DNA of 64,000 nt from an uncultured Bacilli bacterium (GTDB taxonomy: Bacteria > Bacillota_I > Bacilli_A > RF39 > UBA660): the NCBI GenBank assembly GCA_934085595.1, contig CAKOHK010000005.1, positions 12,147 to 76,146 of the forward strand. Reading direction: 5' to 3'. How positions within the stretch are numbered: the stretch's first letter is position 1; each line of letters begins with the position of its first letter. The notes under the pieces are model-generated. The model saw only the letters and a program-made list of their open reading frames with translations. It was not told the origin of the DNA and ran no database searches. Of this stretch, positions 7,802 through 31,599 are shown piece after piece. A program made the position numbers and the translations under genes.

Positions 7802-10800
7802 TTATTGTATCACAAACGGATTACTAGCACTTCCATTACCTGATACATATTTTACACTTGATGAAAGATATACAGAAGGACGTAAATTACCATTTGCATT
7901 ACTTGAAGTATCAAAACTTACTATACCACTACCGTACACACGCATCGAAACATTAGAACGGAAAGAACAAGGTGATAAAGTCCAGAACCAATTATCTGTA
8001 TCTATAATCCAATCAGTACTCATACATGTTCCAGCGAAGTTATTTCCTGAAGTACCATTGTTATAGCATTCACTACTACCATACATATAATCACTTGGAT
8101 ATATTAATGCTACTTTTCCATCCCATGTTTGACTATTTCCGCTATGCACACTTGTACTTCTTTCTTGATTATACATTTCATCCGTAGTTCCAACACCAGG
8201 TCCATTAGACCACACCACATTACCCAAATACCATTTTGTACTACTTATCTGATTTTTTGCTTCAGATGTTAAACCATTACTTGCATATGTACCAGTTCTA
8301 TTATAATATTCACCGCTATTTAGTGTTGTCATTAATGTTGAAGTTGTCCAATCGCTATAGTTTATAGTTGAATTAGAACTCCACGCTGATTTTCCTATTT
8401 TATTTCTTACTAGTTTTATTTTATACTCTTTCATATATCCGTTGCCATTAGGCGTTTGAACTTCAAACACACCAATAATTCTCCACACTCCAGTTTCACC
8501 ATTGAATGTTATATAATTGTTTGGATTTGCTCCTTGATATCTATATTCAGTTGTTGCATAAGTTTGATTCCCTGTTGATGTTTGGTCTATTTTTGTTAAA
8601 CCTAAAGCACTATAATTACCGATTAAATAATAAGCAAATGTCGAAACTTTCCAATGAGCATACAATGTCTGAGTTGTAGTGATTGATACAGTTGAACTCG
8701 CTTTTATTTGTGTTCCACTTGTTGCACTTGTAAACCATCCTATAAACTCATGTCCAGGCTTAGTTGGAGTTGGTAAAGTTCCATATTTAGCACCATATGT
8801 TACAGTCATACTTGATGTTGAAACACTTCCACCATTAGCATTAAAGTTTACTGTATATTTATTTGCAGTATAATTAGCTGTTAGTGTTGTGCTTCCACTT
8901 CCCATTGTTAGAGTTGTACCACTTAATGTTGCATTACCAGACTTTGTCCAGTTTGAAAATGTATATCCTTTTTTTGTAGGATTTGATATTGTTTTAGTAG
9001 CTTCATAATATTCACTACTTACTGTATTTGATGTACTTCCATTATAAGTTCCACCATTTGGATTTATAGTAAGAGTATATTTATTTCTTGTATAATTATA
9101 AGTTACCACATTCTTAGTACTTGGTTTATCCGAATCAATTGCTATTGTAATTGTTTTTGTTGATGGACTTGTAAACCCTGTATATGTTTTTACAGATGGT
9201 GTTACTTTTGATAAATAATCAGCTTCACCTTCTTCTGTATCAGCACTTACTAATGTATAAGTACTTCCATCAACATTCATTTTATTATGATATGCTACCC
9301 ATGGATAAGTATTTGCTTTCCAGTGTGCATATAATGTTTGATTTGCTGTAATAGTTACTGATGAATCTTCTTTTATTTGGAGTCCACTACTTGCATCTGT
9401 AAACCATCCTAAAAATACATATCCATCTCTTGTTGCAGTTGGTAATTCTCCATAAGTTCCATTATATGTAACATCTTTACTTGCAGTATCAACATCTCCT
9501 CCATTAGCATTAAAACTTACTGTGTATTTATTTGCTTCATAATTGGCTGTTAGTGTTGTATTTTCACTTCCTATTGTAAGTGTTGTATCTGTTAAAGTTG
9601 AATTACCTGTCTTAGTCCACTTTGTAAATGTATATCCAGTTTTAGTTGGACTCTTTATTGCTTTAACAGCTTCAAAGTATTCACTTGTTGTAGTACTTGA
9701 TGTATTTCCATTATATGTTCCTCCATTAGGATTTATTGTAAGTGTATATTTATTTCTATCATAATTATAATTTACTACATTCTTAGTGCTTGGTTTTGTA
9801 TCCACCACTATTGTTATTGTTTTTGATGCTGGACTTGTAAATCCAGTATATGTGTTTACTGTAGGTGTAACTTTACTTCCAAAGTCAGCTGTACCCTCTT
9901 TTGTATCTGCACTTACTAAAGTATATCCACTTCCAGTTACATTCATTTTATTATGATATGCTATCCATGGATAAGAATTGATAGCCCAATTAGCAGTTAA
10001 TGTACAGTCTTCAAGTCCCATAGTTAATTTCTTTCCGTTTAATGAAGCCTTATCACTGCTTACTGCCCATCCAGTAAATGTATATCCCTCTCTTACTGGA
10101 TCAGATATATCTACATCTGTTCCGTATGTCACACTTGATGTTTTAGTTTCAGTACTTCCATTATAACTTCCGCCATTTGGATTAATAGTTAAATCATAAT
10201 TATTTTGTCTCCATGTCGCAGTTACTTTAGTTTCTTCTATTCCCATTACTAATGTTTTACTTCCATTACTTGTTTCAGCAACTTTCGTACTCATCATTCT
10301 TACTTTATTAGTAAGCATAGCTGTACTTGAATCTTTTAATGTACTTTTCTCTCCTGTAACATTCCATCCGCTAAATGTATATCCTTCTCTTGTTGGATCA
10401 CTTAATTCTATTTCATTTTTATATCTTTCACTTGTTGTTATGCTTCCGGTTGAACCTTTATATGTTCCTCCTGCTGGATCTATTGTTAGATTAGATATTG
10501 GTGTTAAATCTTTATATATTACATTTCCATCTATATTTTTAACCCATAATTTCTTATCATAATCATCCACTTTATCACTAACTGTATACTCATTTTTGCT
10601 TACATTCTTCCATGATGATGGCTCTTCTGCATCAGCACTTGTTACTGCATATGCACTAAGTCCATTTGTATCTTTTAATAAAGCAGTTAATAATAAATTA
10701 TCTATTTTTGCATTATTTATTACTGGTACATTTGAATCATTAAAGTTATATTCATTTATTTGTATCTTTCCTATAAACTTTTTACCTTGATTATAATTTT

Positions 10801-11335
10801 GTACAGAACCAGTTTCAACAAATGTTATAGTTAATTTATATTTATTTGTTACACCAACTTTAATAGGATTATTCCCTTTTAACTTTTGTGATGTTGGTAC
10901 TTCACTATATATAAAAGGTGTTGTTCCTTGTCCATCACATGTTCCTATTCCTGTTTGACCCTCTTGTCCATATTTTTCATAACTAACACAGTCTAAACTA
11001 AAGACAAGTTCATCCTTTTCAATAGTATTAATCATATCAACCATATTAATATCAAACTCTGTATCAAAGTCACCTGTATTCGTTACAGTAAACTCTTTAA
11101 TTAATGTTTTACCCGGCTGTATATTATCCACTTTTAACTCTGGACCACTATTATAAAATAATGATAAATTACCAGTAGTAACTCTTATATCTTGTGCTTC
11201 TTCATTACCATTTACAGTAATACTAAAATACGCATAAGATACACCAATTACTAATAATAAACCTAATACTACAGATAAATAAATCACACTTTTATTTTTA
11301 AACAACTCTTTAAAATTGATACTTTTCATATACAC
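7802..11335 (-). CDS. large surface protein: SipW-type signal + TasA-like N-domain + Listeria-Bacteroides (Flg_new) repeats + DUF6273-like C-terminal domain
   Basis: 1177 aa. Signal [12 protein letters not shown]. TasA-like block [21 protein letters not shown] ... [15 protein letters not shown]. Multiple YTVxFNANGG...GYxFxGWFT...QTLYAHW repeats. The C-terminal domain has the landmarks [15 protein letters not shown] and NLRPSVYL. Confidence 0.8.
8645..9979 (-). repeat. tandem in-frame duplication of a ~666-nt (222-codon) module
   Basis: Unit 1 starts at [14 protein letters not shown] (nt 9979 downward) and unit 2 at [14 protein letters not shown] (nt 9313 downward). Both end in QTLYAHWK and are colinear throughout. 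Confidence 0.85.
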
Positions 11336-11422: not shown

Positions 11423-12493
11423 TTATATTTTCATTCTTAATTTATATTCTTCTTCACTATTTAATTCCATAAATGTTCTATTATCAAAATTACTTGGTGA
11501 AAATAAATACATTATATAATCTTTTATATCTCCTGTACTATATCCTTTTATTCTAGCTGCTGCACTAGTAGGACTTCCACCACCACCTAATAATTTCATA
11601 ATAGCTGATACATCTATAATACCTTTACTTCTAGCACTTATAGATACTAAATCTTGATCTATATATGCTATCGCAAACGCAGCATCTACATTATATCTAG
11701 ATATATAATCTGCACATTTAGCTATATCTTCTACAGTAAATATTCTACCACTATCACTACTATCAGCAGCTATCCCTATAGAATATTTTAAAAACTCGGT
11801 TCCATCTACTAACTTTTGTATTAGTCTATCATGTTCAAACTCTTCTAAAAATAAATTATTAACTGTTTCAGGATTAGCCCCCCTTTCTGTTAATTTAGAA
11901 AGAACTGAAAATGTTTTAGAAGTTAAGTTCTTAGTAAGTCTATTTGTATCTAAAACTATACCTGATAATAAATAATTTGCTTCATCTGGATTAATTTTAA
12001 TTCCAAGATTAAATATAAGTCTAGATATTTCTTCACATGTACTTGATAAACATGTATCTACAAATAAATTAGGTGTCACTATAGTATGTTCATCTGTTTT
12101 ATGATGATCTATTACTAATATATCTTTAAATGAATCAAAATAGTCTTTTGTAGATACTAAATAATCTTTATTTGCATCTACTATTACAAGCATACTATTA
12201 TCTGTAATAAGTGGTGATAAATCACCTATTCTAATTACATTATGATTCTTATTTATATCTCCTATCATCTTTTGTATTTCTACTGGCAAACTCTTAATTT
12301 CATCATTAATAATAATATAATTTTTCTTTTTATATTTCTTGCCTGCTATTAATGACATCCCTACTGCTGCTCCTAAAGCATCAAAGTCAGGCCTATTGTG
12401 TGGAACTATAAAAACACTATCTACTTCACTCATTAACTTATCAAGTGTAGGTTTCAGTTCCCCGTTTGTTTCCATATTAAATATTTCCTCCAA
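11423..12493 (-). CDS. DHH/DHHA1 family phosphoesterase (stand-alone GdpP/NrnA-like catalytic module)
   Basis: 356 aa. DHH motifs HNRPDFDALGAAVG, VIVDANKD and VIDHHKT. The DHHA1 Gly-rich motif reads GGGGSPTSAAA. Confidence 0.7.
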   Translation of the reverse strand: MEEIFNMETNGELKPTLDKLMSEVDSVFIVPHNRPDFDALGAAVGMSLIAGKKYKKKNYIIINDEIKSLPVEIQKMIGDINKNHNVIRIGDLSPLITDNSMLVIVDANKDYLVSTKDYFDSFKDILVIDHHKTDEHTIVTPNLFVDTCLSSTCEEISRLIFNLGIKINPDEANYLLSGIVLDTNRLTKNLTSKTFSVLSKLTERGANPETVNNLFLEEFEHDRLIQKLVDGTEFLKYSIGIAADSSDSGRIFTVEDIAKCADYISRYNVDAAFAIAYIDQDLVSISARSKGIIDVSAIMKLLGGGGSPTSAAARIKGYSTGDIKDYIMYLFSPSNFDNRTFMELNSEEEYKLRMKI

Positions 12494-12560
12494 AAAAAAT
12501 GTACATATTAACTATGTACAAATTAATTATATCATTTATATTTTAAAAGTCAAATTGTTA

Positions 12561-13310
12561 CTACTTTTCCACAAATCCATCTGTTATCATCTTAGCAACT
12601 ATACCATGACTGCCAAGTTCACTACTACTAAGATCATATAACCCTACTACTCTCCACATAACTTCATGGAATAAATAATTATTTTTTTCTTGTCCTGATA
12701 TTATACAAGCATTTACTTTTTCTCCAGTTTTAGTGTCTATTAATTTTGTTGGATTATCACTCTTATCACATTTACATGTCGCATCACTAGTATCATATTT
12801 CCCTATAAATGATCCATTTTCAAATCTTTCACATATAGCTTTAGTAAGTTCACTATTATCTGTATCAGTTGATTTACCATTAAAATCAGCAATAACCCCT
12901 ACTGTATCTTTAGTTAAAAGAACATAATCAGAGTTCATACTTTTTTTAGTAACTGGATTTACAATACATCCTTTACTTGTTACTTCTACTCCTTCTATTA
13001 ATGTTTTTAAACAAGTTCCGCTACTTAATTCACCATCTTTAGTAGATTCTACTTTTAAATAATCTTGATTTATTAAATCAACTACATATAGTTTAACTTC
13101 ACTTTGTCCATTAAATACTTCAGGTTTATTAGTGGCATATAATTCAGCAGCACTCTTTATCATATCTACTTTTTCATTATACATTCTCTTATTTATATTT
13201 TTATTAATTAATGAAATACTTGGAATAGCTATCGCACTCAAAACTCCAATTATCGCAATAACAACCAAAACCTCTGTAAGCGTAAAACCATATTTATTTT
13301 TCATATCCAC
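12561..13310 (-). CDS. type IV pilin-like / pseudopilin protein (prepilin N-terminal cleavage-methylation motif)
   Basis: 249 aa. N-terminus MDMKNKYG/FTLTEVLVVIAIIGVLSAIAIP, i.e. class III signal G-FTLxE followed by a hydrophobic helix. Confidence 0.75.
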   Translation of the reverse strand: MDMKNKYGFTLTEVLVVIAIIGVLSAIAIPSISLINKNINKRMYNEKVDMIKSAAELYATNKPEVFNGQSEVKLYVVDLINQDYLKVESTKDGELSSGTCLKTLIEGVEVTSKGCIVNPVTKKSMNSDYVLLTKDTVGVIADFNGKSTDTDNSELTKAICERFENGSFIGKYDTSDATCKCDKSDNPTKLIDTKTGEKVNACIISGQEKNNYLFHEVMWRVVGLYDLSSSELGSHGIVAKMITDGFVEK

Positions 13311-17310: not shown

Positions 17311-18351
17311 CTATTCTCCTTCCTTAAGAGCCCTAAGTTGCCCACAAGCAGCAGATAGCTCTCCCCCCATCTCTTTCCTTATTGTTACATTAATATTATT
17401 CGATTTAAGTATATCATAAAACTTATTAATTTTAAATACACTACTTCTCTTAAACTCAAAATGAGATGTTTCATTATAAGGTATCAAATTAATATAAACA
17501 AGTTTCCCTTTAAATAAATTAACTAACTCTAAAGCATTATCATAAGTATCATTTATACCATCAAGCATTATATATTCTATAGTTACTCGTCTATTAGTAG
17601 TATTTATATAATAATCTATTGCTTTTATTAATTCTTCTATTTTATATGCATGATTTATTTTCATTAATTTATCTCTTAATACATTATTAGGAGCATGTAA
17701 AGATATCGCAAGATTAACTTGATTCTTTAAATTAGCAAACTCATATATCTTAGGTACTAGTCCACATGTAGATACTGTTATATGTCTAGAACCTATACCT
17801 ACCATATGATTATTAGTTAATATACTAAGAAAATCTATAATATTATCATAATTATCAAAAGGTTCTCCTATTCCCATAACAACTACATAATCTATTCTTA
17901 TATTTTCTAGTTTCTCTACGCTTATTATTTGATTAACCATTTCATATGTTAATAGATTTCTAACTTTCTTAAGTCTTCCACTCTCACAAAAAGCACATCC
18001 CATATTACATCCTACTTGACTTGATATACAAAGACTATTACCATAATCATGAAACATTAAAACACATTCTATTTTATTTCCATCACTAAGTTCAAATAAA
18101 TATTTATTAGCAAGTTTACTTTCTTCTTTAGTTATTAATTTTAAATCATTTACTTCAAAATGACTATTACAAAACTCTCTAAGTTTTAAAGATAAATTAC
18201 TCATCACATTAAAATCATATATTTTCTTCTTATATATAAAATCTATTATTTGAGAAGCATTATATTTCTTAAACCCATTTTCTATTAAATATTCTTCTAG
18301 TTTTTCCTGTGTAAAATTATATATATTCATCATATAAAAATTATAGCACAC
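17311..18351 (-). CDS. rlmN: 23S rRNA/tRNA (adenine-C2)-methyltransferase RlmN (radical SAM)
   Basis: 346 aa. Radical SAM cluster motif GCNMGCAFCESG and C-terminal SAACGQL. The true start may be one of the internal Met codons at 18333/18330. Confidence 0.9.
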   Translation of the reverse strand: MCYNFYMMNIYNFTQEKLEEYLIENGFKKYNASQIIDFIYKKKIYDFNVMSNLSLKLREFCNSHFEVNDLKLITKEESKLANKYLFELSDGNKIECVLMFHDYGNSLCISSQVGCNMGCAFCESGRLKKVRNLLTYEMVNQIISVEKLENIRIDYVVVMGIGEPFDNYDNIIDFLSILTNNHMVGIGSRHITVSTCGLVPKIYEFANLKNQVNLAISLHAPNNVLRDKLMKINHAYKIEELIKAIDYYINTTNRRVTIEYIMLDGINDTYDNALELVNLFKGKLVYINLIPYNETSHFEFKRSSVFKINKFYDILKSNNINVTIRKEMGGELSAACGQLRALKEGE

Positions 18352-18410
18352 AAATAACTCTTTTTGTAAATAAAAACCAGAATATTACATTATTCTAGTC
18401 TATTTTACAC

Positions 18411-19418
18411 TTAAATTACTCCTCTCTTCTTAAGTTCTTTAAGTACCAAACTATTATCTTCTTCAAGTCTATCTATATCTACCACATCACATACACGTTT
18501 AAACTCTTCCATTATTTCACTAGGATCACTACATTTAAGTTTGTTAAATTCTTCTACAAACTTATTCCTAAGTTCATTATTTTCTTTAATCATCACTTTA
18601 AAAGCATCACAATTATTTAAAACACTTCTACCACATAAAGCATTCAAACAATATTCAGCATCTAAAGCATTCTCTTTATACCCTTTAATACATAATGAAT
18701 TAGAAAACATTAATAAATAACTATTAGGAAAATATTCTTTTACATCTACACCAATTACAATTGCTACTAAAAGTAAATATATAATAAAAGCAATAAAAAC
18801 AGCAAGCGTATTTAAACCAACATGGTCATAAAGAACTATATTTTTAATTACTTCTTTTATTTCTTCTTCATTTAATAGATCTCCACTTTCAGATATACTT
18901 TCCATAGTACTAATATAATCAATGCCCATTTCTTCTAGATTTAGTTTTAAATATTCTTCTAAATCCATCTCACCAAGACTACTAATATCATATGTCCTAA
19001 CTTCTCTTTCACTTTTCATGTTCCATGGCTCATATATTTTAATATATGTTCCCTCACTAGCTTCATTAATAGGTACATATTTTTCTTCTTTACTATATCC
19101 AGTTTCTTCGTTGTATGCAAGTGCTGCACTATATACCACTTGATAATTATCATTAAGTACTTTATCACTTAACTCAAAATATCCCTTTGAAACACCGAAA
19201 AATATACCTATAGACGCAATCAAAGTTATTATTCTTTCTTTAATTTCTTTTTTATTTATATCACGAATTCTAGAATATTTGGCAATTTCATTAACAACAC
19301 TTCTCATTCCAGATTCTTTAATTTTATTATTACTTTTTTCAATACTATGAAGTATATCATAAACTTCTTCTTCGTTTACTTCTTCTACTTTTTTAACATA
19401 TGCTTTACTGCTTTCCAT
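18411..19418 (-). CDS. uncharacterised two-TM protein, paralog P1 of a six-gene array
   Basis: The ORF extends to 19469, but by homology with its paralogs the start is MESSKAYVKKVEE at 19418. Conserved blocks are YNEETGYSKEE, IKIYEPWNMKSEREVRTYDISSL, EEYLKLNLEEMGIDY and ELRNKFVEEFNKLKCSDPSEIMEEF. Confidence 0.7.
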   Translation of the reverse strand: MESSKAYVKKVEEVNEEEVYDILHSIEKSNNKIKESGMRSVVNEIAKYSRIRDINKKEIKERIITLIASIGIFFGVSKGYFELSDKVLNDNYQVVYSAALAYNEETGYSKEEKYVPINEASEGTYIKIYEPWNMKSEREVRTYDISSLGEMDLEEYLKLNLEEMGIDYISTMESISESGDLLNEEEIKEVIKNIVLYDHVGLNTLAVFIAFIIYLLLVAIVIGVDVKEYFPNSYLLMFSNSLCIKGYKENALDAEYCLNALCGRSVLNNCDAFKVMIKENNELRNKFVEEFNKLKCSDPSEIMEEFKRVCDVVDIDRLEEDNSLVLKELKKRGVI

Positions 19419-20421
19419 CAATACCCCTCTTCTTAAGTTCTTTAAGTACCAAACTACTTTCTTTTTCAAGTCTATCTATATCAACTTTACTACAAAGAGC
19501 CCTAAACTCTTCCATTATCTCACTCGGATCACTACATTTAAGTTTATTAAACTCTTCTACAAACTTATTCCTAAGTTCATTATTATCTTTTATCATATCT
19601 GTAAGACGGCACATATTCTCTAACAAATCTCTATTATATTCAGATTTAATATATCGCTTATAAAAATTTGCTTCTTCCATGTAAACTTTTAAACTACATA
19701 CATTACCTAGAACAAAACAATAACTTTCAGCATCAAGCATTCCAACATCAACATATATAATAGCTAGTATTATTAAAGCATATATCAAAACAGTAGCTAA
19801 AGAATAAGAAGTGTCTACTTTAGTTTGATCACTATATATTATCTTTTTAACAACTTCTCTTACTTCTTCTTGATTAAGCAAAACATCACTTCCAGATAAA
19901 TTTTCAATAGTACTAGTATAATCTATTTCCATTTCTTCTAGATTAAGTTTCAAATATTCTTCTAGTTCCATATCACTAAGGCTACTTATATCATATGTTT
20001 TAATTTCTCTTTCACCTTTCATATTCCATGGCTCATATACTTTTATATACGCTTCTTCATTAGCATCTTTAATTGGTATATACTCTTCTTCTTTACTATA
20101 TCCAGTTTCTTCGTTATATGTAAGTGTAACACTATTAACAGTTTGAAAATTATCATTAAGTATCTTATTACTTAACTCTTTACATCCTTTTGAAAATCCA
20201 AAGAATATAGTTAAAGATGCAATCAAAGCAAGTATTCTTTTTCTAACTTCTCTTTTATTTTCTTTATATCCTTTAATACTTCTAACTGCATTATAAATAT
20301 CATTTTGTATTCTAAAATTATCTATTTCTTTATTACTTTCTTCAATTTTTTGAAGAATATCATACACATCCTCTTCATTTACTTCTTCTACTTTTTTAAC
20401 ATATACTTTACTGTTTTCCAT
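19405..20421 (-). CDS. uncharacterised two-TM protein, paralog P2
   Basis: 338 aa. Same architecture: acidic N-terminus, TM1 ILALIASLTIFFGF, an ~120 aa loop domain, TM2 LATVLIYALIILAIIYV and a conserved C-terminal helical region. Confidence 0.75.
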   Translation of the reverse strand: MENSKVYVKKVEEVNEEDVYDILQKIEESNKEIDNFRIQNDIYNAVRSIKGYKENKREVRKRILALIASLTIFFGFSKGCKELSNKILNDNFQTVNSVTLTYNEETGYSKEEEYIPIKDANEEAYIKVYEPWNMKGEREIKTYDISSLSDMELEEYLKLNLEEMEIDYTSTIENLSGSDVLLNQEEVREVVKKIIYSDQTKVDTSYSLATVLIYALIILAIIYVDVGMLDAESYCFVLGNVCSLKVYMEEANFYKRYIKSEYNRDLLENMCRLTDMIKDNNELRNKFVEEFNKLKCSDPSEIMEEFRALCSKVDIDRLEKESSLVLKELKKRGIDGKQ

Positions 20422-21421
20422 TAATACCTCTCTTCTTAAGTTCTTTAAGTATTAAACTATTTTCTTTTTCAAATTTGTCAATATCAGCTTCTTTACAAAG
20501 AGCTCTATACTTTTCCATTATCTCACTAGGATCACTACATTTAAGTTTATTAAACTCTTCTACAAACTTATCTCTAAGTTCATTATTTTCTTTAATCATA
20601 TCTGTAAGATGACACATATTCTCTAATAAATCTCTATTAAATTCAGATTTTATATTTCGCTTATAAAAATCCGTTTCTTCCAAACAAACTTTTAAACTAC
20701 ATATATTACCCAGAACAAACCAATAACTATCAGCATCAAGTATTCCAATATCTACATATATAATAGCTAATAATATTATAATATATATAAGTATTGCTTC
20801 AAATGAAGAAAGAACATCATTCTTAGTTTGATCATAATAAACCATCTTTTTAACAACTTCTCTTACTTCTTTCTCATTTAGCAAGACACTGCCTGATAAC
20901 GTTTCAAATACACTAGTATAATCTATACCCATATCTTCAAGATTAAGTTTTAAATATTCTTCTAGGTCCATATCACTAAGACTACTTATGTCATATGTTC
21001 TAATTTCTCTTTCCTTTTTCATATTCCATGGTTCATATACTTTAATATATGTTTCTTCTTTAGCATATTTAATTGGTATATACTCTTCTTGTTTACTATA
21101 TCCAGTTTCTTCATTATACGTAAGTGTAACACTATTAACAGTCTGAAAATTATCACCAAGTACTTTTTCACTTAATGCCATATATCCTTTTGAAACACCA
21201 AGAAATACAGTTAAAGAAGCAATCAAAGCAAGTATTCTTTTCATAATTTCATTTTTGTTTTCTTTATACTCTTTAATACTTGTAACAGCACTATAAACAT
21301 CATTTTGTATTCTAAAATTATCTATTTCTTTATTACTTTCTTCAATTTTTTGAAGAATATCATACACATCCTCTTCATTTACTTCTTCTACTTTTTTAAC
21401 ATATGCTTTACTGTTTTCCAT
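20408..21421 (-). CDS. uncharacterised two-TM protein, paralog P3
   Basis: Start MENSKAYVKKVEE (ATG at 21421, alternative at 21424). Close paralog of P2 and P4. Confidence 0.75.
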   Translation of the reverse strand: MENSKAYVKKVEEVNEEDVYDILQKIEESNKEIDNFRIQNDVYSAVTSIKEYKENKNEIMKRILALIASLTVFLGVSKGYMALSEKVLGDNFQTVNSVTLTYNEETGYSKQEEYIPIKYAKEETYIKVYEPWNMKKEREIRTYDISSLSDMDLEEYLKLNLEDMGIDYTSVFETLSGSVLLNEKEVREVVKKMVYYDQTKNDVLSSFEAILIYIIILLAIIYVDIGILDADSYWFVLGNICSLKVCLEETDFYKRNIKSEFNRDLLENMCHLTDMIKENNELRDKFVEEFNKLKCSDPSEIMEKYRALCKEADIDKFEKENSLILKELKKRGINGKQ

Positions 21422-22436
21422 CAATGCCTCTCTTCTTAAGTTCTTTAAGTATTAAACTATTTTCTTTTTCAAGTCTATCTATATCTACCATATCACATAC
21501 ACGTCTAAACTCTTCCATTATTTCACTAGGATCACTACATTTAAGTTTATTAAACTCGTCTACAAACTTATCTCTAAGTTCATTATTCTCTTTAATCATA
21601 TCCGTAATATGACATATATTCTCTAACATTTTTATACTACATCTATAATTTATTTCCTCTTTATCGTATTTTGCAGCATCTACACAATCTATCAAACAAC
21701 CTAAATTGCCTAGAACAAAACAATAACTTTCAGCATCAAGTAACTCAACATCAACATATATAATAGCTAGTATTATTAAAACATATATCAAAACAGTAGC
21801 TAAAGAATAAGAAGTGTCTACTTTAGTTTGATCACTATATATTATCTTTTTAACAACTTCTCTTACTTCTTCTTGATTTAGCAAAACATCACTTCCAGAT
21901 AAATTTTCCTTAGTACTAGTATAATCTATACCCATTTCTTCTAGATTAAGTTTCAAATATTCTTCTAATTCCATATCACTAAGACTACTTATATCATATG
22001 TTTTAACTTCTCTTTCTCTTTTCATATTCCATGGTTCATATACTTTTATATAAGTTCCTTCTTCAGCTTTACTTACAGGCACCCATTTTTCATTTTTACT
22101 ATATCCATTTTCTTCATTATACGCAAGTGTAACACACTTAACATCTTGAAGAGTATTATTAAGTACTTTTTTACTTAATGATATATACCCTTTTGAAGCA
22201 CCTATAAATACAGTTGTAGCCGCAATTAAAGCAAGTAATCTCTTTAGAGCTCTTTTTTTACTTTCTTTATACTCTTCAATTTTTTTAACCATCATATAAA
22301 TATTATTATTCCATCTAGAAGATTCTATTTCTTTATTACTTTCTTCTATTTGCTGAAGCATATCATAGATATCCTCTTCATTTATCTCTTCTACTTTTTT
22401 AACATATGCTTTATCACTATTCATTTCATTCTCCAC
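21408..22436 (-). CDS. uncharacterised two-TM protein, paralog P4
   Basis: 342 aa with the same conserved blocks. Confidence 0.75.
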   Translation of the reverse strand: MENEMNSDKAYVKKVEEINEEDIYDMLQQIEESNKEIESSRWNNNIYMMVKKIEEYKESKKRALKRLLALIAATTVFIGASKGYISLSKKVLNNTLQDVKCVTLAYNEENGYSKNEKWVPVSKAEEGTYIKVYEPWNMKREREVKTYDISSLSDMELEEYLKLNLEEMGIDYTSTKENLSGSDVLLNQEEVREVVKKIIYSDQTKVDTSYSLATVLIYVLIILAIIYVDVELLDAESYCFVLGNLGCLIDCVDAAKYDKEEINYRCSIKMLENICHITDMIKENNELRDKFVDEFNKLKCSDPSEIMEEFRRVCDMVDIDRLEKENSLILKELKKRGIDGKQ

Positions 22437-23460
22437 TATATTTTAAAGTTTTAACCATTTTATTATATTTATCACTTAAACTTGATGTATCTACTTCACT
22501 ACATACACGTTTAAATTCTTCCATAATCCCACTAGGATCACTAAAATCAAATTTATTAACTTCATGTGCGAACTTATTTCTAAGTTCATCGTTTCTTTTA
22601 ATTATTTCAGTCATTAAAACACTATATTCAAGCATACTTCTTAAATCATATTCATTATTAATAGTTTCAGTATATGATTTAATATATCGTTTATTAGATT
22701 TAATTTCATCAATATCATCAAAAAATCTATACATAAATGTATCACGTCCAGCATTTTCAAACACAATCGAAAATACTACATAAAGAGCCAATAATCCAAA
22801 AAACAAAGGAATAATTCCTTCATATACATCCATATTAGTTTTAGCATCATCTGGATATATAACTTTTTTAACGACTTCTCTTACTTCTTCATTGTTAAGT
22901 ATTGTATGTTCATTATCTTTTAATGTTTCAATTATTGTAGTATAATCTATCCCCATTTCTTCTAGATTAAGTTTTAAATATTCTTCTAGTTCCATATCAT
23001 CAAGATTACTAACGTCATATACTTTAACTTCTCTTTCACTCTTCATATTCCATGGTTCATACACTTTAATATATGTTTCGTTTTTACCATCACTTACTTT
23101 AATATCTTCTATATCTTTACTATACCCAGTCACTTCATTATAACTAAGCGTAGCGCATGGCATTAATTTATTTTTAGAAGCTACTAACGCTGTAACCCCA
23201 CCATATGTAAGAACAGCGCCAGATATAATACTAATTGATGTAATCAAAGAAACCATTCTTTTTTTAAGATCTTTTTTATATTCTTCTAAACTTCTAATGT
23301 ACCTCAAAACCTTATCATATTCATATTCAATTATTACATCTTTTTTATTAGTAAAATCTTTATTACTATTTTCTATCTCATGTAAAGTATCATAAACACT
23401 ATTTTCATCCATTACTTCAGCACTTACTTTACATTCTTTATCCAAACTAACACTATTCAT
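22426..23460 (-). CDS. uncharacterised two-TM protein, paralog P5 (diverged)
   Basis: 344 aa. Retains YNEVTGYSKDIE, IKVYEPWNMKSEREVKVYDVSNL, EEYLKLNLEEMGIDYTT and ELRNKFAHEVNKFDFSDPSGIMEEF. Confidence 0.7.
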   Translation of the reverse strand: MNSVSLDKECKVSAEVMDENSVYDTLHEIENSNKDFTNKKDVIIEYEYDKVLRYIRSLEEYKKDLKKRMVSLITSISIISGAVLTYGGVTALVASKNKLMPCATLSYNEVTGYSKDIEDIKVSDGKNETYIKVYEPWNMKSEREVKVYDVSNLDDMELEEYLKLNLEEMGIDYTTIIETLKDNEHTILNNEEVREVVKKVIYPDDAKTNMDVYEGIIPLFFGLLALYVVFSIVFENAGRDTFMYRFFDDIDEIKSNKRYIKSYTETINNEYDLRSMLEYSVLMTEIIKRNDELRNKFAHEVNKFDFSDPSGIMEEFKRVCSEVDTSSLSDKYNKMVKTLKYSGE

Positions 23461-24487
23461 AAATCCCCCTCTTCTTTAATAACATTTGCACTTCATCATA
23501 TCTAGAAAATATAGATGAATCTATCATATCACATACATTACTAAACTCTTCCATAATCCCACTAGGATCACTACATGAAAGTTTATTAAATTCTTCTATA
23601 AATTTATTTTTAAGTTCTTCATTTTCTTTAATTATTGAAGTCATCAAAACACAGTATTCAAGCATACTTCTTAAATCATATTTATTAATTTTACTATTAA
23701 TTATCTTAACATTCCATTTATTTTTATTAATATTTTCAGATTCATTATAAAATTTATACGTAAAACTTTTTTTTAAGTTAACTGAAAATATCCAATAAAT
23801 AAAAATTGATACAATATATAAAAGTAGACTCAATCCATATACTAAAGTATTAGCTTTAGCTTTATCAGGATATGAAGTTGTTCTAACAACTTCTCTTACT
23901 TCATCACTATTAAGTATTGTTTCTTCATTATCACTTAATGTTTCTATTAATGTAGTATAATCTATTCCCATTTCTTCTAAATTAAGTTTTAAATATTCTT
24001 CTAGTTCCATATCACTAAGACTACTCACATCATATGTTTTAACTTCTCTTGTTGTGTCTATACCCCAAGGTTCATATACTTTAATATATGTTTTACTCTC
24101 GCCTTCACCAAACTTAACATATTCTATATCCTTACTATAACCAGTTACTTCATTATAAGTAAGTGTTGCACTTGGCATTACTTTATTCCTTGAAGCTATC
24201 AAAGCAGTCAATCCACCATATCCAAGAGTTGCTCCTGCTAAAATGCTAAATGATGTTAATAAGGAAACAATACTTTTTTTAATTTCTTTTTTATATTCAG
24301 ATAAACGCGTAGAATTATCTATAAACGCAGAAATATATCTTTCTATCTGATTACTATTATTATTTTTTAAAGTAATATTATTTCTTCTTATTTTTTCTAA
24401 AGTATCATAAACATCCTCTTCATAAGTGCTTTCACTATCATTAGATTCTAATTTATCATTTTTTTCTCTATCATATGCAAATCCCAT
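23453..24487 (-). CDS. uncharacterised two-TM protein, paralog P6 (diverged, first gene of the array)
   Basis: 344 aa. Retains YNEVTGYSKDIE, IKVYEPWGIDTTREVKTYDVSSL, EEYLKLNLEEMGIDYTT and ELKNKFIEEFNKLSCSDPSGIMEEF. GGGGGA lies upstream of the ATG. Confidence 0.7.
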   Translation of the reverse strand: MGFAYDREKNDKLESNDSESTYEEDVYDTLEKIRRNNITLKNNNSNQIERYISAFIDNSTRLSEYKKEIKKSIVSLLTSFSILAGATLGYGGLTALIASRNKVMPSATLTYNEVTGYSKDIEYVKFGEGESKTYIKVYEPWGIDTTREVKTYDVSSLSDMELEEYLKLNLEEMGIDYTTLIETLSDNEETILNSDEVREVVRTTSYPDKAKANTLVYGLSLLLYIVSIFIYWIFSVNLKKSFTYKFYNESENINKNKWNVKIINSKINKYDLRSMLEYCVLMTSIIKENEELKNKFIEEFNKLSCSDPSGIMEEFSNVCDMIDSSIFSRYDEVQMLLKKRGIYE

Positions 24488-24578
24488 AAATATCCCCCTA
24501 AAAGTAAGATTTATTATATATCAAAACTATAAAAAAGAAAAGAAAAATAATACAAATTCAACATTTTTTATATCATAA

Positions 24579-24602
24579 TAAAAAAGAAGCAATTGCTTCT
24601 TA
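24579..24602 (-). terminator. rho-independent terminator after tadC
   Basis: Palindrome aagaagca/attgcttctt at 24584-24601 overlaps the tadC stop codon, followed on the minus strand by TTTTT. Confidence 0.55.
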
Positions 24603-25388
24603 TAGCCCAGTAAATATTTGTAGTATTGAAAGTAATAGAATTATCATAACTCCAATACCTGTAGATGAAAGCATAGACATCGTTTTCTTTTCCATTTTTT
24701 CAAGTCTTTCTTTATATTTTTGTTCTCTTGATTTAGCTTGTAAATTAGAAACAGTTCTTGAAAAAGTTATTAATTGCTCTTGTTTTCTATCTTGATTACC
24801 AAGACCAAGTCTATATAAAAGTCTCATCATTCTCATTGAATCTCTAACTGGATAACGTCTAGCGAATGCCATATAAGGTTCAATACTAGAATCGCCTGAA
24901 TCAATCGCGGCTATCAATTCTCTAAGTCCAGGCTTAAACATATCTGGAGCTTGATCAACACTCTTAGTAATCGCAACTGGCACTGTATAGTGTTGTATTA
25001 ATATCTCAAGACTCTTTAAATAATATGGTAATTTAAGATTAATATCATGTAAATGTACTTTATAATAATTCTTAACTCTATTATAGTCTGATTTAAATAC
25101 TACAAAAGTAAGAACTAAAACAATAACAAGTTTAACAGCACTAAAATCAGTAACTATAAACAATAAACCAACTATAAATACCATTATAGAATCTCTAATT
25201 CTCTTTTGATATCTAAGTTCTTTATCTACTTTATCACCAAAACTAGCATCTAAATAAAAATCATAATCACTTTCTTTTAATTTAGAAAATATAGCCTTAT
25301 TATCTGCAACAAATGTATTAAATTGTATAGCCCCTAAATAATTAAATAAGAATAAAAGTATAACACCTATTAAAACTATCTCTATCAT
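24600..25388 (-). CDS. tadC: TadC-like type II secretion system F-family platform protein
   Basis: 262 aa. N-terminal TM helix, two central TMs, a cytoplasmic T2SSF-like helical domain (LPYYLKSLEILIQHYTVPVAITKSV ... ELIAAIDSGDSSIEPYMAFARRYP) and a C-terminal TM. Adjacent to tadB and tadA. Confidence 0.65.
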   Translation of the reverse strand: MIEIVLIGVILLFLFNYLGAIQFNTFVADNKAIFSKLKESDYDFYLDASFGDKVDKELRYQKRIRDSIMVFIVGLLFIVTDFSAVKLVIVLVLTFVVFKSDYNRVKNYYKVHLHDINLKLPYYLKSLEILIQHYTVPVAITKSVDQAPDMFKPGLRELIAAIDSGDSSIEPYMAFARRYPVRDSMRMMRLLYRLGLGNQDRKQEQLITFSRTVSNLQAKSREQKYKERLEKMEKKTMSMLSSTGIGVMIILLLSILQIFTGL

Positions 25389-26317: not shown

Positions 26318-27745
26318 CTAATTAATCTGATTAACACCAGGAGGTATACTAATAACATTTTCTTTAAAAACATTATTTGCCGTATTACCAGCTCCACTAC
26401 TAGTTTGTGTATTTGCATTTTGTGTATTAACTGCTTGAACAGTAGGCTTTTGTACACCAGGTATTTGAGCATTAACACTTTGTGTATTTAGCGCTTGTTC
26501 ATTTACATTAGTATTTGTATTTTGAACACCATTATTTACTACTGGCTTAGAAGCACTTACTGCATTGCTAACTACAGGCGTTTGAGTGTTACTCACATTA
26601 GAATTAGCACTACTGTCTTCAACTTTCTTTTCTTCACTAGAAGTTTCCTCTAAAGTTTCATCACTACTCTCTCTTAAAACACCCTCTTTAGGTATAAATG
26701 GATCCTCTCTCATTAATACACCTTGACTAGCTAAATAATCTATTAAATGAGAAGTAGGATTATTATATTTTTCATTTCCAACTAAATCTCTTTCATATAA
26801 AATATTAATTTTAGCTTCATTCGCATCATCATCAACATAGAACTCTACAACCTGTACAATTTCTCTTTGAAATCTATTATATTTCTTAGAAAAATATCCT
26901 TTAACATGTATACCTAATTGTATATATCTATGCATACTCTTAACAAATTGATCTATATCTTGACTCGTTTCAAGTAGCGAATATAAACGCATAGGTATCG
27001 CAGATGCTTTATCTGAGTGTATTGTTGATATAATATTATGTCCTGAAGATATTGAGTTACGTACAGCAAGTACTGCTTCAGCACTACGAACCTCTGACAA
27101 AAGTATCCATTTAGGGTTCTGACGCATACATGTAACAAGTACATCACTATAACTTGCTATATTATTTGTTTTCATCGCAACTATATCTCTATCTGGATAT
27201 ATCTTATCAAGGTGAAGCTCTAATGTATCTTCAATAGTTATTATCTTTTCATCTACTTTAGTATGACTAGCTAAGTATTTAACAAGTTCTGTTTTACCAC
27301 TACCAGTTTCTCCACTAACAAGTATATTACAGTGTCCTTCAACACACTTCATAAGAAAATCATGTAGTTTTAGTGATACATAATCTTCTTTAATTAATTT
27401 ATCTTTATTAAGTCTTATCTTAGCAGGAGTTTTTCTTATAAGAACAGCAATTCCATTAGTCGCTATTGATTCATGTACAAAGTTAAGACGTAACTCAGCA
27501 CTCTCTGCATCAAGAAATGGATGAGCCATATTAAATGTCTTACCCATTACATTAGAACATTGAAATGCAAGTTTTTCCATTGTTTCATTATTAACACCTG
27601 GAACATCTCTTTTTTGTACACCTTGAGTTAGTGTTTTAACCCAAAGCACACCACCATTAGAATAAGATATATCTGTTATATCATCATCCTGTAATAGTGG
27701 CATTAAAAGACCAAAATCTATTTGAGAAAACACTAAATCATTCAT
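26318..27745 (-). CDS. tadA: TadA/CpaF-family type IV filament secretion ATPase with low-complexity C-terminal tail
   Basis: 475 aa. Walker A VSGETGSGKTE, TIEDTLEL, ILLSEVRSAEA and His-box STIHS. The last ~120 aa are S/T/N/Q/V-rich. Confidence 0.8.
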   Translation of the reverse strand: MNDLVFSQIDFGLLMPLLQDDDITDISYSNGGVLWVKTLTQGVQKRDVPGVNNETMEKLAFQCSNVMGKTFNMAHPFLDAESAELRLNFVHESIATNGIAVLIRKTPAKIRLNKDKLIKEDYVSLKLHDFLMKCVEGHCNILVSGETGSGKTELVKYLASHTKVDEKIITIEDTLELHLDKIYPDRDIVAMKTNNIASYSDVLVTCMRQNPKWILLSEVRSAEAVLAVRNSISSGHNIISTIHSDKASAIPMRLYSLLETSQDIDQFVKSMHRYIQLGIHVKGYFSKKYNRFQREIVQVVEFYVDDDANEAKINILYERDLVGNEKYNNPTSHLIDYLASQGVLMREDPFIPKEGVLRESSDETLEETSSEEKKVEDSSANSNVSNTQTPVVSNAVSASKPVVNNGVQNTNTNVNEQALNTQSVNAQIPGVQKPTVQAVNTQNANTQTSSGAGNTANNVFKENVISIPPGVNQIN

Positions 27746-27757
27746 ATATACTCCTTT

Positions 27758-28561
27758 TTATTGATTATTATTTGTATTATTATCTGTAGTTGTATTACTA
27801 CTATTATTACTATCAAGTGGAACTTCTATTGTTTTTGATAGTATTAATGATTTTAAATAATTACTTGATATTGTTGGACTCTCTCCATAATCAGCATTTC
27901 TTGGTACTGGTATTATTTCTCCATCTAAATAAGATGCTTTTCTTAAAAGTAAATGCATATCTTCACTAACAGCAAATATTAATGCTGCTGCTTGTTTTTG
28001 ATTAGGAGCTTTCTTAAATATATGATTTCCTCCTTCATCTTTAACAGCAAGTACTTCTATTCCTTCAATAAGTTTACCAAGTACAAGTTTTCCATTACTA
28101 TCTATTGTTTTATAATATAAATCTATTTTATCTTTAGGGAATATTGAATTACCATAAGTAGTATTAACATTAACACCTAAAGAAACAATAGTATATCCCT
28201 CTTTAATATTAGACCAAGCTGAATCTGGCATGCTACTCCAATCAACTAAAGCAGACTGATAAAATAAACTACCAGCTGGAATCATTGTATTATAATTTAC
28301 AAACTTTCCAATAACATCATTCTTATTTCTAATAACAGTATTAGTTACCATAGAAGCAGCCATTTTAATTGTTTTAACTTTATCTTCAGTAACTTCTTCT
28401 CTAGCATATATATCTACTGCTGCATAAGGTACACTTACAGGCTTAGTAATTTGATTAACCCTATAATTATAAGCAACCATTATTATTACAGTACAAACTA
28501 TCCCAGCAATAATAGTAACAAGATTCTTATTTCTAAATAAATTACCTAAAAAAGCTTTCAT
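27758..28561 (-). CDS. cpaB: CpaB/RcpC-like Flp pilus assembly protein (SAF domain), copy 2
   Basis: 267 aa. N-terminal TM anchor, then a SAF-like region (VPYAAVDIYAREEVTEDKVKTIKM) and an N/T-rich tail. Paralog of the upstream gene. Confidence 0.6.
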   Translation of the reverse strand: MKAFLGNLFRNKNLVTIIAGIVCTVIIMVAYNYRVNQITKPVSVPYAAVDIYAREEVTEDKVKTIKMAASMVTNTVIRNKNDVIGKFVNYNTMIPAGSLFYQSALVDWSSMPDSAWSNIKEGYTIVSLGVNVNTTYGNSIFPKDKIDLYYKTIDSNGKLVLGKLIEGIEVLAVKDEGGNHIFKKAPNQKQAAALIFAVSEDMHLLLRKASYLDGEIIPVPRNADYGESPTISSNYLKSLILSKTIEVPLDSNNSSNTTTDNNTNNNQ

Positions 28562-29427
28562 TATTTATTACCTCCAGTTCCATTATTGTTTGTATTGTTT
28601 TTTGTATTATTAGTGTTAGTATTTGTATTATTATCTGTAGTTGTCATATCTTTCATATCTTCTTCACTTACATTAATTGTTTGACTTAATATATAACTTT
28701 CTAAATAACTACTACTTATCTTAGTTTCACCTGGTTTTAGTGAATACTCTGCATTTCTTGGTACTGGGAATATAGTACCTGATAAATAAGATGCTTTTCT
28801 AAGTAATAAGTGATAATCTTCATTAACTGCAAACATCAAATATGCAGGAGGATTTAAATCAGTACTTTTTTCAAATACACTATTTCCTTCACTATCAACA
28901 ACTGCAAGTACTTTAATACTTTCAATTAACTTACCAAGTATAAGTTTTCCATTACTATCAGTAACTACATAATATAAATCTATATAATTACCTGGAAATA
29001 TTGAATTACCATAAGTACTCTCAAGTGTTACAGGTAAATATACAACTGTATATCCCTTTTCTATATCACTATATAAACTAGAAGGTAAATCTTCCCAATT
29101 AACAAGTACTTTTCTATAAAATAAACTACCAGAAGGTATAACAGCATTACTACTTACATACTTTCCAATTACCTCACTAGAGTTTTTAATAACATTATTT
29201 CCAACCATACTCTTAGGAACCTTTATAGTACCTACCATATTAGCACTCACCTGCATTCTAGGTGATATTTCCTTTAAAGCATAAGGAACACTTATCGGAT
29301 CAGTCTTAGACTTAATCCTAAAATAATAAGCATAATAAATTATAAATAAACACAAAAGAACTGCTAATATAGTAACAGTATTTTTATTCTTAAAAAACCT
29401 CTTAAGTCCTATTTTTAAACCTTCCAT
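28561..29427 (-). CDS. cpaB: CpaB/RcpC-like Flp pilus assembly protein (SAF domain), copy 1
   Basis: 288 aa, colinear with 27758..28561 (GSLFYxxxLVxW, YGNSIFP, GKLILGKLIE, HLLLRKASYL, PVPRNA). Ends in an N/T-rich tail. Confidence 0.6.
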   Translation of the reverse strand: MEGLKIGLKRFFKNKNTVTILAVLLCLFIIYYAYYFRIKSKTDPISVPYALKEISPRMQVSANMVGTIKVPKSMVGNNVIKNSSEVIGKYVSSNAVIPSGSLFYRKVLVNWEDLPSSLYSDIEKGYTVVYLPVTLESTYGNSIFPGNYIDLYYVVTDSNGKLILGKLIESIKVLAVVDSEGNSVFEKSTDLNPPAYLMFAVNEDYHLLLRKASYLSGTIFPVPRNAEYSLKPGETKISSSYLESYILSQTINVSEEDMKDMTTTDNNTNTNTNNTKNNTNNNGTGGNK

Positions 29428-31188: not shown

Positions 31189-31599
31189 TTATATTCCTTC
31201 TAAATTAGCTTCCATTATTCTATTAGAAAATCCTTTACTTATATCATATCTTACACATACTCTATAATTATTAAGCTCTTCATTATTAACAGGATTCTTA
31301 AGTATAGTTTTATTATTTTTATCTCCCACTATATACCCTTTAGATATAAGTTCATCTACATATACATAATTACATACAGTATAGTTTCTATTATTACTAT
31401 CTACATCTAATTTAAGATGTTCTAAATTATCATTAGCCCATTCATATGAAGCACTCTCTATATTTTTAACTTTAATATCTAAATCTCTTTTTAAAGCATC
31501 TTCTTTAGTACTTATTATATTAGGTATAACAAGCGCACTTACTATTCCTATAAGTACAACTGTAATTAACATTTCAATTAAAGTAAAACCTTTTTTCAT
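31189..31599 (-). CDS. type IV pilin-like protein (prepilin N-terminal cleavage-methylation motif)
   Basis: 136 aa. MKKG/FTLIEMLITVVLIGIVSALVIPNI. The start codon lies 1 nt after the eno stop. Confidence 0.8.
   Translation of the reverse strand: MKKGFTLIEMLITVVLIGIVSALVIPNIISTKEDALKRDLDIKVKNIESASYEWANDNLEHLKLDVDSNNRNYTVCNYVYVDELISKGYIVGDKNNKTILKNPVNNEELNNYRVCVRYDISKGFSNRIMEANLEGI

Follow-up and report, generated by a model that had tools for sequence, protein, structure and literature searches.

A dynamic tandem array of orphan two-pass membrane protein genes beside a Tad-like cluster in an uncultured gut Bacilli bacterium

Introduction

Directly downstream of a cluster of Tad-like genes in an uncultured Bacilli bacterium lie six consecutive, related genes for membrane proteins, and the locus which they form raises the question of what such an array does and whether it belongs to the machine encoded beside it. 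An earlier note on this DNA, made from the sequence alone, had proposed a link of this kind. The stretch analysed here, hereafter the window, comprises 64,000 nt of contig CAKOHK010000005.1 (assembly GCA_934085595.1) with a G+C content of ca. 26-28%, and the six genes occupy positions 18411-24487 on its minus strand. We are highly confident of the descriptive part of the answer, namely that the array is a coupled operon, that it encodes an orphan family of two-pass membrane proteins and that it is evolutionarily dynamic; the mechanism which we propose for these proteins is a far more tentative matter and is considered after the evidence.

The six genes and their family

The open reading frame (ORF) list contains six overlapping, co-oriented paralogs of 335-344 amino acids (aa) which fill this region, as had been reported. 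In the order in which they would be transcribed they are:

23453-24487, minus strand: P6, array gene 1, 344 aa, a type found in every array of the species cluster
24494-24498, minus strand: Shine-Dalgarno (SD) sequence GGGGG of P6
22426-23460, minus strand: P5, array gene 2, 344 aa, with an 8-nt overlap with P6
21408-22436 (ORF), minus strand: P4, a 'middle-type' paralog, 338 aa from the likely start ATG 22424
20408-21424, minus strand: P3, a 'middle-type' paralog, 337-338 aa
19405-20421, minus strand: P2, a 'middle-type' paralog, 338 aa, modelled in this study
18411-19418, minus strand: P1, the last gene of the array, 335 aa, start ATG 19418

The start of P1 is most likely ATG 19418, which is preceded by the SD sequence GAGGGG, the TTG at 19469 being an artefact of longest-ORF listing, and P4 most likely starts at ATG 22424 (MNSDK, SD sequence GGAG) rather than at GTG 22436. 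Overlaps of 8-17 nt between neighbouring genes are a sign of translational coupling and co-production of the paralogs. The SD sequences of P5, P3, P2 and P1 are the conserved KKRG codons (AAGAAGAGRGG) of the gene upstream, so that each repeat unit carries the ribosome binding site of its downstream neighbour. A chance origin of the six ORFs can be excluded on sequence grounds, because ORFs of at least 335 aa are very unlikely in DNA of 26% G+C, because homologs are found down to E values of 1e-167, and because the ratio of nonsynonymous to synonymous substitutions (dN/dS) in the extracytoplasmic domain is low (see below). Three short ORFs of 87-125 aa on the plus strand, two antisense to the array (19400-19663 and 22406-22783) and one to a pilin gene (12339-12641), most likely do not code for protein and merely mirror the minus-strand genes.

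Alignment of the paralogs gave identities of 38-56% to P1, 66-80% among P2, P3 and P4, and 54% between P5 and P6, which agrees with the graded divergence described previously. The conserved blocks quoted at that time were also recovered (YNE.TGYSK, YIKVYEPW, RE..TYD.S and MELEEYLKLNLEEMGIDYT), as was the C-terminal motif ELRNKF..EFNKL.CSDPS.IMEE.

The earlier note had recognised no known family, and the database searches bear this out. The six paralogs produced only noise against Pfam (E ≤ 1), NCBIfam, PADLOC and PHROGs, no relevant Pfam family was found for 44 diverse family members, and the family profiles retrieved nothing credible from the sequences of the PDB. PADLOC had no match for the window proteins, and the one match to a distant member (PycTM, E 0.005) is below a credible level; PHROG matches occur at E ≥ 0.006 only. 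When the models of P2 and of P0067, a long-form relative, were compared with the PDB using Foldseek the best match had an E value of 0.02, and the probability was at most 0.3; the matches to GFP-like barrels, FKBP52, Wzc, enterovirus VP1 and MukB are of a non-specific beta or long-helix kind. Two Foldseek matches in BFVD (E 2-4e-4) were rejected as long-helix artefacts, having template modelling (TM) scores of 0.15-0.18 and a root mean square deviation of 22 Å. Nor did the six paralogs contain a class III (prepilin) signal, again as noted before: neither G/FTLIE nor the Flp-type motif G/XXXXEY is present, and the N_methyl profile matches two other genes of the window and none of these. We found no description of the family in the literature. 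Judged by these searches and by the structure models, both the protein family and its predicted fold are new, nothing related having been found.

Membrane topology and structure models

Each paralog possesses two hydrophobic segments separated by a loop of 112-123 residues with a net charge of -6 to -17. The 15 residues which precede the first transmembrane segment (TM1) include 5-7 lysines or arginines in five of the six paralogs and three in P3. This K/R-rich segment and the acidic loop support a topology in which the N-terminus is inside, the loop outside and the C-terminus inside, and the beta domain would thus be extracytoplasmic. The predicted layout shared by the six consists of a cytoplasmic N-terminus, acidic and soluble over 62-72 residues, followed by TM1, an acidic, beta-rich outer domain of ca. 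120 aa, the second transmembrane segment (TM2) and a helical cytoplasmic C-terminus. Hydropathy and the model agree on two transmembrane segments, the layout which had been claimed for all six proteins. In P2 the predicted parts, based on hydropathy, charge and the model, are:

20236-20421, minus strand: N-terminal cytoplasmic part
20167-20235, minus strand: TM1
19813-20166, minus strand: ectodomain
19738-19812, minus strand: TM2
19408-19737, minus strand: C-terminal cytoplasmic part

AlphaFold2 models were built from family alignments for P2 and for P0067, with predicted local distance difference test (pLDDT) values of 85.9 and 86.7, respectively. In the P2 model the N-terminal part forms a short helix (residues 16-35) and then a 53-residue helix (39-91) running into and through TM1; residues 93-202 form an almost entirely beta domain of six strands, which is followed by a helix comprising TM2 (204-227) and by four C-terminal helices. 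In the long-form model TM1 is preceded by a helix of 79 residues which continues into it, and TM2 is followed by one of 59 residues. Matches of the family to PDB sequences were weak (E ≥ 0.01) and were to designed coiled coils, over exactly these pre-TM1 and post-TM2 helices of the long form. The long helices and the coiled-coil matches lend some support to a coiled-coil stalk. Across the family the conserved features of the ectodomain are a T.TY(S/N) strand, Y..Y.PW, R....YDVS and ..DY, and the C-terminal motif takes the form N.EL...F..L...NK.LL.DP..L. Within the species the acidic N-terminal helix is also among the best-conserved parts.

Promoter and terminators

The elements which delimit the array are as follows:

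24584-24601, minus strand: weak terminator-like 5' hairpin with a T-run, starting at the last base of the stop codon of the tadC-like gene
24513-24518, minus strand: -10 box (TATAAT) of the array, in the 112-nt spacer after the tadC-like gene
18368-18398 (core 18377-18398), minus strand: 3' intrinsic-terminator-like hairpin with a U-tract, before rlmN

The TATAAT box is kept in the window and in strains L001, L006 and L010, the last of which has a perfect TTGACA-N17-TATAAT promoter at the same position in the spacer. The 5' hairpin (folding free energy -7.7 kcal/mol, z-score -1.5) is kept in all four of the aligned strains. The 3' hairpin is considerably more stable (-13.9 kcal/mol, z-score -4.6), and none of 200 shuffled sequences folds as well. 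Terminators on both sides had been described, the downstream one as the weaker; both hairpins exist, and their order of strength is the reverse. Taken as they stand, these sequence elements mark the array as a separate operon with its own predicted promoter and terminator. No slippage-prone promoter repeats were seen in the one intergenic spacer which was read.

Evolution of the array

The number of copies between the tadC-like gene and rlmN is four in L006-L009, six in the window and seven in L001. The identity matrix resolves four ortholog types in a fixed order (P6-type, P5-type, 'middle' type and P1-type), the middle type occurring once, three or four times per array. The orthologs of P6, P5 and P1 are 99, 97 and 99% identical, respectively, in L001, and 92, 90 and 81% identical in L006. 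The differences in copy number between strains are most simply ascribed to unequal crossing-over.

Exchanges on a shorter scale are also visible. At the nucleotide level P2 and P3 are 99-100% identical over their first 45 codons and 68-71% identical at alignment columns 196-225, around TM2, while P2 and P4 are 94-100% identical over columns 136-240 and 61-73% elsewhere, which is indicative of a gene-conversion tract. Between near-identical strains, P4 and its L001 ortholog differ at residues 308-312 alone, the L001 copy having there the residues of the window's P2, and the 11 differences between P3 and its L001 ortholog all fall within residues 3-60. Differences confined to short tracts in this way are the pattern expected of gene conversion.

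Comparison of the window with L006 gave dN of 0-0.017 and dS of 0.01-0.11 for the flanking genes, and dN of 0.037-0.099 at similar dS for the array (dN/dS 0.5-1.6). With L010 the flanks are 85-99.6% identical, the tadB- and tadC-like genes 99%, and the first array gene is 39-61% identical to any window paralog (dS 0.6-0.8). For the species as a whole the flanking genes, the Tad-like ones included, are put at 95-100% identity. Between strains, therefore, the tadB- and tadC-like genes are 99-100% identical compared with 39-92% for array genes: the array stands out as hypervariable in a part of the chromosome which otherwise hardly differs. The family, if it is as it appears, also offers a clean natural example of a bacterial multigene locus with a directly readable evolution, going from 1 to 10 copies at a fixed chromosomal site.

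The variation is unevenly spread along the proteins. In the window array the differences per site amount to 0.10-0.125 in residues 31-62 (the pre-TM1 helix), in TM2 and in residues 229-272 (the post-TM2 helix), compared with 0.02 in the ectodomain and 0.026 in TM1. Of those comparisons of the variable segments for which dN/dS could be estimated usefully, about half give a value above 1; in the ectodomain it lies between 0.06 and 0.5 in all but one of ten comparisons. A ten-copy array of the long form is 63% identical in the ectodomain core and 72% in the C-terminal motif, against 15-23% in the pre-TM1 helix, TM2 and the post-TM2 helix. Since the profile of this array is the same, the combination of conserved ends with a variable stalk and a variable TM2 is a property of the family rather than of one locus.

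Distribution of the family

A word-index search retrieved 49 proteins, of which all except one belong to the same species cluster of human-gut metagenomes, and HMMER, run exhaustively against 1.84 billion cluster representatives, retrieved 76 proteins at E ≤ 1e-3, of which 29 had E ≤ 1e-10. The six window genes and the array genes of loci L001-L014, L020 and L022 match the family profile at E values of 1e-33 to 1e-100, and one ORF cut by the end of its locus does so at ca. 1e-7; the family layout and motifs are shared as well. One further protein (P0064), 151 aa long and encoded on a 1.3-kb contig, consists of the C-terminal module only and is uninformative. The species-representative genome collection contained one match, in a metagenome-assembled genome (MAG) of an uncultured Bacilli bacterium which encodes Spo0A, and no family member was found in the viral-contig, phage-genome and plasmid collections. 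The G+C content of the eight distant contigs is 22-28%, and K, N, I and Y abound in all 14 relatives whose sequences were inspected. So far, the family appears to be restricted to a narrow lineage of uncultured, AT-rich gut bacteria.

The family occurs in a short form of ca. 330 aa, the type of the window, and a long form of ca. 550 aa; about half of the relatives carry an extra all-helical N-terminal cytoplasmic domain of ca. 230 aa which has no Pfam match. In L004 this domain is specified by a separate ORF of 211 aa (4029-4664; E 4e-69 to the hidden Markov model of the N-domain), which overlaps the membrane-core ORF (4649-5575) in another frame. Whether the gene is truly split or has suffered a frameshift, the N-domain behaves as a separable module. 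The copy in L004 is the only separately encoded one, no homolog of this kind being present in the window, L001, L006 or L010. A CotZ-like spore-coat gene lies just upstream of the L004 array.

Distant members adjoin rpmF, sit between rnj and pgk, or lie near rlmN-prpC-prkC. The rnj-pgk site holds a single long-form gene in the Bacilli MAG and ten tandem long-form genes, 29-53% identical to one another, on a 33-kb metagenome contig. Other arrays comprise at least two copies after rpmF, two next to a CotZ-like gene and three in L012. The 428-kb contig L014 has a single long-form gene, 1.2 kb away from rlmN-prpC-prkC-rsgA-rpe and not accompanied by Tad genes; the RlmN protein encoded there is 61% identical to that of the window. 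In this region of L014 (6983-10834) the family gene is divergently oriented, and genes for DUF6568 and a SpoU methylase stand between it and the rlmN block. When a partner gene kept across all contexts was sought, only the rlmN-prpC-prkC-rsgA-rpe block emerged, which the window and L014 have in common. Adjacency to rlmN in these two (17311-24487 in the window) could be a remnant of synteny or could hint at a function with the PASTA kinase. It also suggests that, if any neighbourhood is ancestral, the older one is that of rlmN and not that of the Tad-like genes.

A model for the array

We propose that the paralogs are oligomeric trans-membrane couplers of a general sensor- or anchor-like design. 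The constant ectodomain, with its conserved Tyr, Trp, Arg and Asp residues, would bind a constant extracytoplasmic ligand, likeliest a wall-associated glycopolymer or protein, and the constant cytoplasmic head would bind a constant partner. The coiled-coil stalk and TM2 would set which paralogs assemble together, and by diverging fast after each duplication they would insulate the paralogs from one another. We regard this mechanism as possible but doubtful; the best explanation taken as a whole, in which it is joined to the description given above, has a somewhat better claim, although one which still falls short of being probable.

Several points weigh against it. The ligand, the partner and the oligomeric state of the couplers are all putative. 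The similarity of the ectodomains within an array may reflect in part homogenisation by gene conversion and not function. The dN/dS values come from segments of 25-45 codons in an AT-rich genome and are noisy, and values near 1 are compatible with relaxed constraint no less than with selection for insulation. The 5' hairpin is weak, so that read-through from the Tad-like operon could occur, and the absence of Tad genes at distant members refers to the loci themselves, most of which are on short contigs.

A bolder version, which is rather improbable, holds that the array represents a new class of envelope protein with a new extracytoplasmic fold, forming a self-diversifying repertoire of 4-10 mutually insulated couplers per cell. 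Tandem duplication and gene conversion would then keep combining stalk and TM2 anew while both functional ends stay invariant, and the couplers could be sensors or docking sites for attack by phages or competitors at the membrane. If this is true, uncultured gut Bacilli would have a variable membrane receptor or a defence system of a new kind. The family itself, if it is as it appears, adds a fold and an envelope component which no database describes and which so far come only from uncultured low-GC gut bacteria, and an array with confident structural models is a well-defined and unusually dynamic orphan locus which merits targeted follow-up.

The Tad-like cluster

The five genes upstream of the array comprise two CpaB-like genes, a gene for a T2SSE ATPase and two genes for polytopic membrane proteins:

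28561-29427 and 27758-28561, minus strand: CpaB-like pair, with N/T-rich C-terminal tails
26318-27745, minus strand: TadA-like T2SSE ATPase, 475 aa
25388-26287, minus strand: tadB-like gene, 299 aa, polytopic
24600-25388, minus strand: tadC-like gene, 262 aa, polytopic

The CpaB-like pair match the RcpC domain (E 9e-5 and 2e-3) and TIGR03177 (4e-7 and 3e-6), all below the curated cut-offs, and the best NCBIfam matches of the ATPase (VirB11, TadA, TrbB and FlaI) are also below theirs. The tadB- and tadC-like products have no T2SSF or other Pfam match at E ≤ 1 and no PDB sequence match, and resemble each other only in their first 50 residues (BLASTP E 3e-4); their putative identity as the platform proteins is based on size, hydrophobic stretches and operon position. 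The order cpaB-cpaB-tadA-tadB-tadC had been read at this place in the earlier note, and the order and adjacency of the genes stand, while the tadB and tadC labels are unverified. For the five-gene cluster the designation 'Tad-like' is plausible, its support from sequence being weak. The ATPase ends in a low-complexity tail of ca. 125 aa, rich in S, N, T, Q and V, the length of which varies by strain (475 aa in total in the window versus 499-500 aa in L001, L006 and L010); with the tail excluded the proteins are 99-100% identical.

The position of the array invites the view that its products serve the adjacent Tad-like (type IVc-like) filament machine as accessory or alignment subunits or as variable membrane subunits. 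All strains of the species cluster (L001 and L006-L010 besides the window) have the Tad-like genes directly upstream and in the same orientation, the intervening hairpin is weak enough (z-score -1.5) for co-transcription to be possible, and membrane location and a multi-copy stoichiometry would suit a platform component. We nevertheless consider this view unlikely. The arrangement was seen nowhere else: a search with the window proteins found no homologs of the cpaB-, tadA- or tadB/tadC-like genes at any of eight distant loci, two of which extend ca. 10 kb to either side. Nor was a T2SSE ATPase called at three longer loci, where the gene calls covered the 33-kb contig and up to 10 kb of flank. 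The second lineage, L014, has its family gene near rlmN-prpC-prkC without Tad genes. Within the species cluster the array has its own -10 box, which in L010 is part of a consensus promoter, and genes which differ so much more between strains than the near-invariant Tad-like genes, and range from four to seven copies, are hard to fit to fixed subunits. The proteins themselves show no likeness to such subunits. Profiles of T2SSF, TadZ, TadE/F/G and CpaB gave no match beyond noise to the six paralogs (E ≤ 1), a hhalign comparison of the family with the window's CpaB-like pair returned a probability of 0.2%, and a pilin signal is lacking.

The functional link to the Tad-like machine proposed in the earlier note is thus not borne out. 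Because the array has a promoter of its own, rates of change decoupled from those of the Tad-like genes and Tad-free distant loci, its position probably represents a species-specific accident of location and not functional coupling; at the level of the locus, co-occurrence of the family with tad and cpaB genes, the check suggested for this link, is confined to the one species cluster (0/8 distant loci). The array genes should therefore not be annotated as Tad or pilus genes on adjacency, and the 'Tad-like' labels of their neighbours rest on weak matches.

The window contains further genes of the type IV filament kind. Two type IV pilin-like genes (N_methyl, G|FTLxE) at 31189-31599 and 12561-13310, both on the minus strand, are isolated in housekeeping surroundings, with eno and proS on either side of one and rpe and a DHH/DHHA1 gene on either side of the other, and are not of the Flp type. 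A canonical T2SSE ATPase of 428 aa (Pfam E 1.8e-119) is encoded at 46241-47527 on the plus strand, beside a penicillin-binding protein (PBP) with a PASTA domain, so that the genome has a second type IV filament ATPase in addition to the Tad-like one.

Other explanations

The rapid change of the array would also fit a protective repertoire, that is, superinfection-exclusion, abortive-infection or toxin-immunity proteins the diversity of which is kept by an arms race. The locus is hypervariable within a species between near-identical flanks, copy number varies, gene conversion shuffles segments between paralogs, dN is from ca. 2-fold to more than 10-fold above that of neighbouring genes at similar dS, and ten anciently diverged paralogs (29-53% identity) have been retained in another lineage. 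Against this explanation stands the place of the variation: a surface interface engaged in an arms race should vary most, but the exposed ectodomain is the most conserved part. Moreover, PADLOC gave no credible match, no member was found among phages, plasmids or viral contigs, and in some genomes the family is represented by a single chromosomal gene amid housekeeping genes. The neighbours scanned included no toxin, LXG/WXG, recombinase or mobile-element gene; those with a family match are the Tad-like genes, proS, rlmN, prpC, prkC, rnj, pgk, rpmF, and the SpoU methylase and DUF6568 genes. A protective role accordingly has a low probability in our estimation.

Less probable still is a lineage-specific scaffold for envelope growth or division, similar in concept to MapZ, with a peptidoglycan-binding ectodomain and a cytoplasmic part working with the PASTA kinase PrkC. 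Two divergent lineages do place the family 0-1.2 kb from rlmN-prpC-prkC-rsgA-rpe, the ectodomain conserves aromatic or polar residues (Y, W, R, D, S) of the sort found in glycan-binding sites, and the window abounds in genes for the envelope and for division (FtsW/RodA, a PBP with a PASTA domain, EzrA, FtsK, FemAB and YfhO). The rlmN neighbourhood, however, occurs in just two contexts, the others being at rpmF or rnj-pgk, there is no similarity to known wall-binding domains, and core division proteins rarely range from 1 to 10 copies or differ by 40-60% within a species. A tandem array which varies in copy number and undergoes gene conversion, in a bacterium related to the Mollicutes but possessing a wall, might bring to mind phase- or antigen-variable surface proteins of the Mycoplasma vsp/vlp type. 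These are very improbable indeed, since variation is lowest in the domain predicted to be exposed, the peptidoglycan layer would cover an ectodomain of 120 aa, lipoprotein and signal-peptide features are absent and the spacer read held no slippage-prone repeats.

Comparison with known systems

The proposed couplers resemble several characterised systems in one respect or another. In gross design they match the chemoreceptors and two-TM sensors, which likewise have a cytoplasmic N-terminus, TM1, an extracytoplasmic ligand-type domain, TM2 and a long cytoplasmic coiled-coil stalk with a highly conserved distal motif. The stalk of the array proteins would, however, be built from N- and C-terminal helices and not from a C-terminal hairpin, and the ectodomain is not a four-helix bundle, PDC or Cache fold, in contrast to those of chemoreceptors and two-TM sensors. 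Signalling domains are missing from the family, and identity as a chemoreceptor or two-TM sensor was rejected when no HAMP, MCPsignal or HisKA/HATPase domain was found in the six paralogs, ten long-form proteins and the 44 diverse members.

The Mce operons (mceA-F) and the MlaD/PqiB-type proteins similarly involve tandem, linked, membrane-anchored paralogs with a small beta-rich extracytoplasmic domain, and those of Mce systems assemble into a single hetero-oligomer. One N-terminal transmembrane segment and an MCE beta-barrel characterise the MCE proteins, whereas the array proteins have two segments and do not match the MCE profile; copy number is 1-10 against a fixed six, and no YrbE/MlaE permease or ATPase partner is present at the array. 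An assignment to the MCE-domain proteins was rejected, given that there was no MlaD/MCE match in Pfam and no MCE structure among the Foldseek matches listed.

Polysaccharide co-polymerases (PCPs) of the Wzz/Wzc and CapA type are oligomeric envelope proteins which share the two-pass arrangement with both termini inside and an extracytoplasmic domain. Their ectodomain is a helical hairpin, compared with one almost entirely of beta structure here, and no genes for polysaccharide synthesis lie near the array. This candidate too was set aside, there being no match to the Wzz profile; Wzc appeared in Foldseek at a probability of 0.04-0.10 with a TM-score of ca. 0.1, values at the level of noise.

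With the accessory proteins of Tad/Flp systems (CpaB/RcpC, TadZ, TadE/F/G) and with PilN/PilO the array has in common that it encodes membrane proteins beside genes for a TadA-type ATPase, CpaB-like proteins and platform-like proteins in this species. It differs in having two transmembrane segments instead of one, in showing no profile or fold similarity, and in that the association is not kept family-wide. A PilN/PilO-type alignment protein was rejected on the two transmembrane segments, the near all-beta ectodomain and the absence of Pfam and Foldseek matches.

As a gene array the locus recalls the pilS cassettes, the Mycoplasma vsp/vlp genes and the EsaG/DUF600 immunity arrays of type VII secretion systems, which are likewise tandem, hypervariable within a species, variable in copy number and subject to segmental gene conversion. 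The copies described here are all full-length with their own SD sequences and apparently co-expressed, and neither silent cassettes nor a cognate toxin gene is present. Their variation lies in TM2 and the cytoplasmic juxtamembrane helices and not on the exposed surface, unlike that of recombining antigen arrays.

Other genes in the window

Nearly all of the genes of the window are on the minus strand, and the GC skew is strongly negative over nearly its whole length (cumulative value -9.75); the skew and several genes flip around 44-50 kb. The gene at 7802-11335 (minus strand) specifies a protein of 1177 aa with an N-terminal camelysin/TasA-like region (Peptidase_M73) followed by many Listeria-Bacteroides (Flg_new) repeats; its counterparts are 1175 aa long in L001 and 982 aa in L007. 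Two other genes, at 3278-5578 and 38408-40474 (both minus strand), encode DUF285 ('Mycoplasma protein') repeats together with carboxypeptidase-regulatory-like domains, and the presence of such DUF285-repeat proteins fits a wall-bearing relative of the Mollicutes/Erysipelotrichia.

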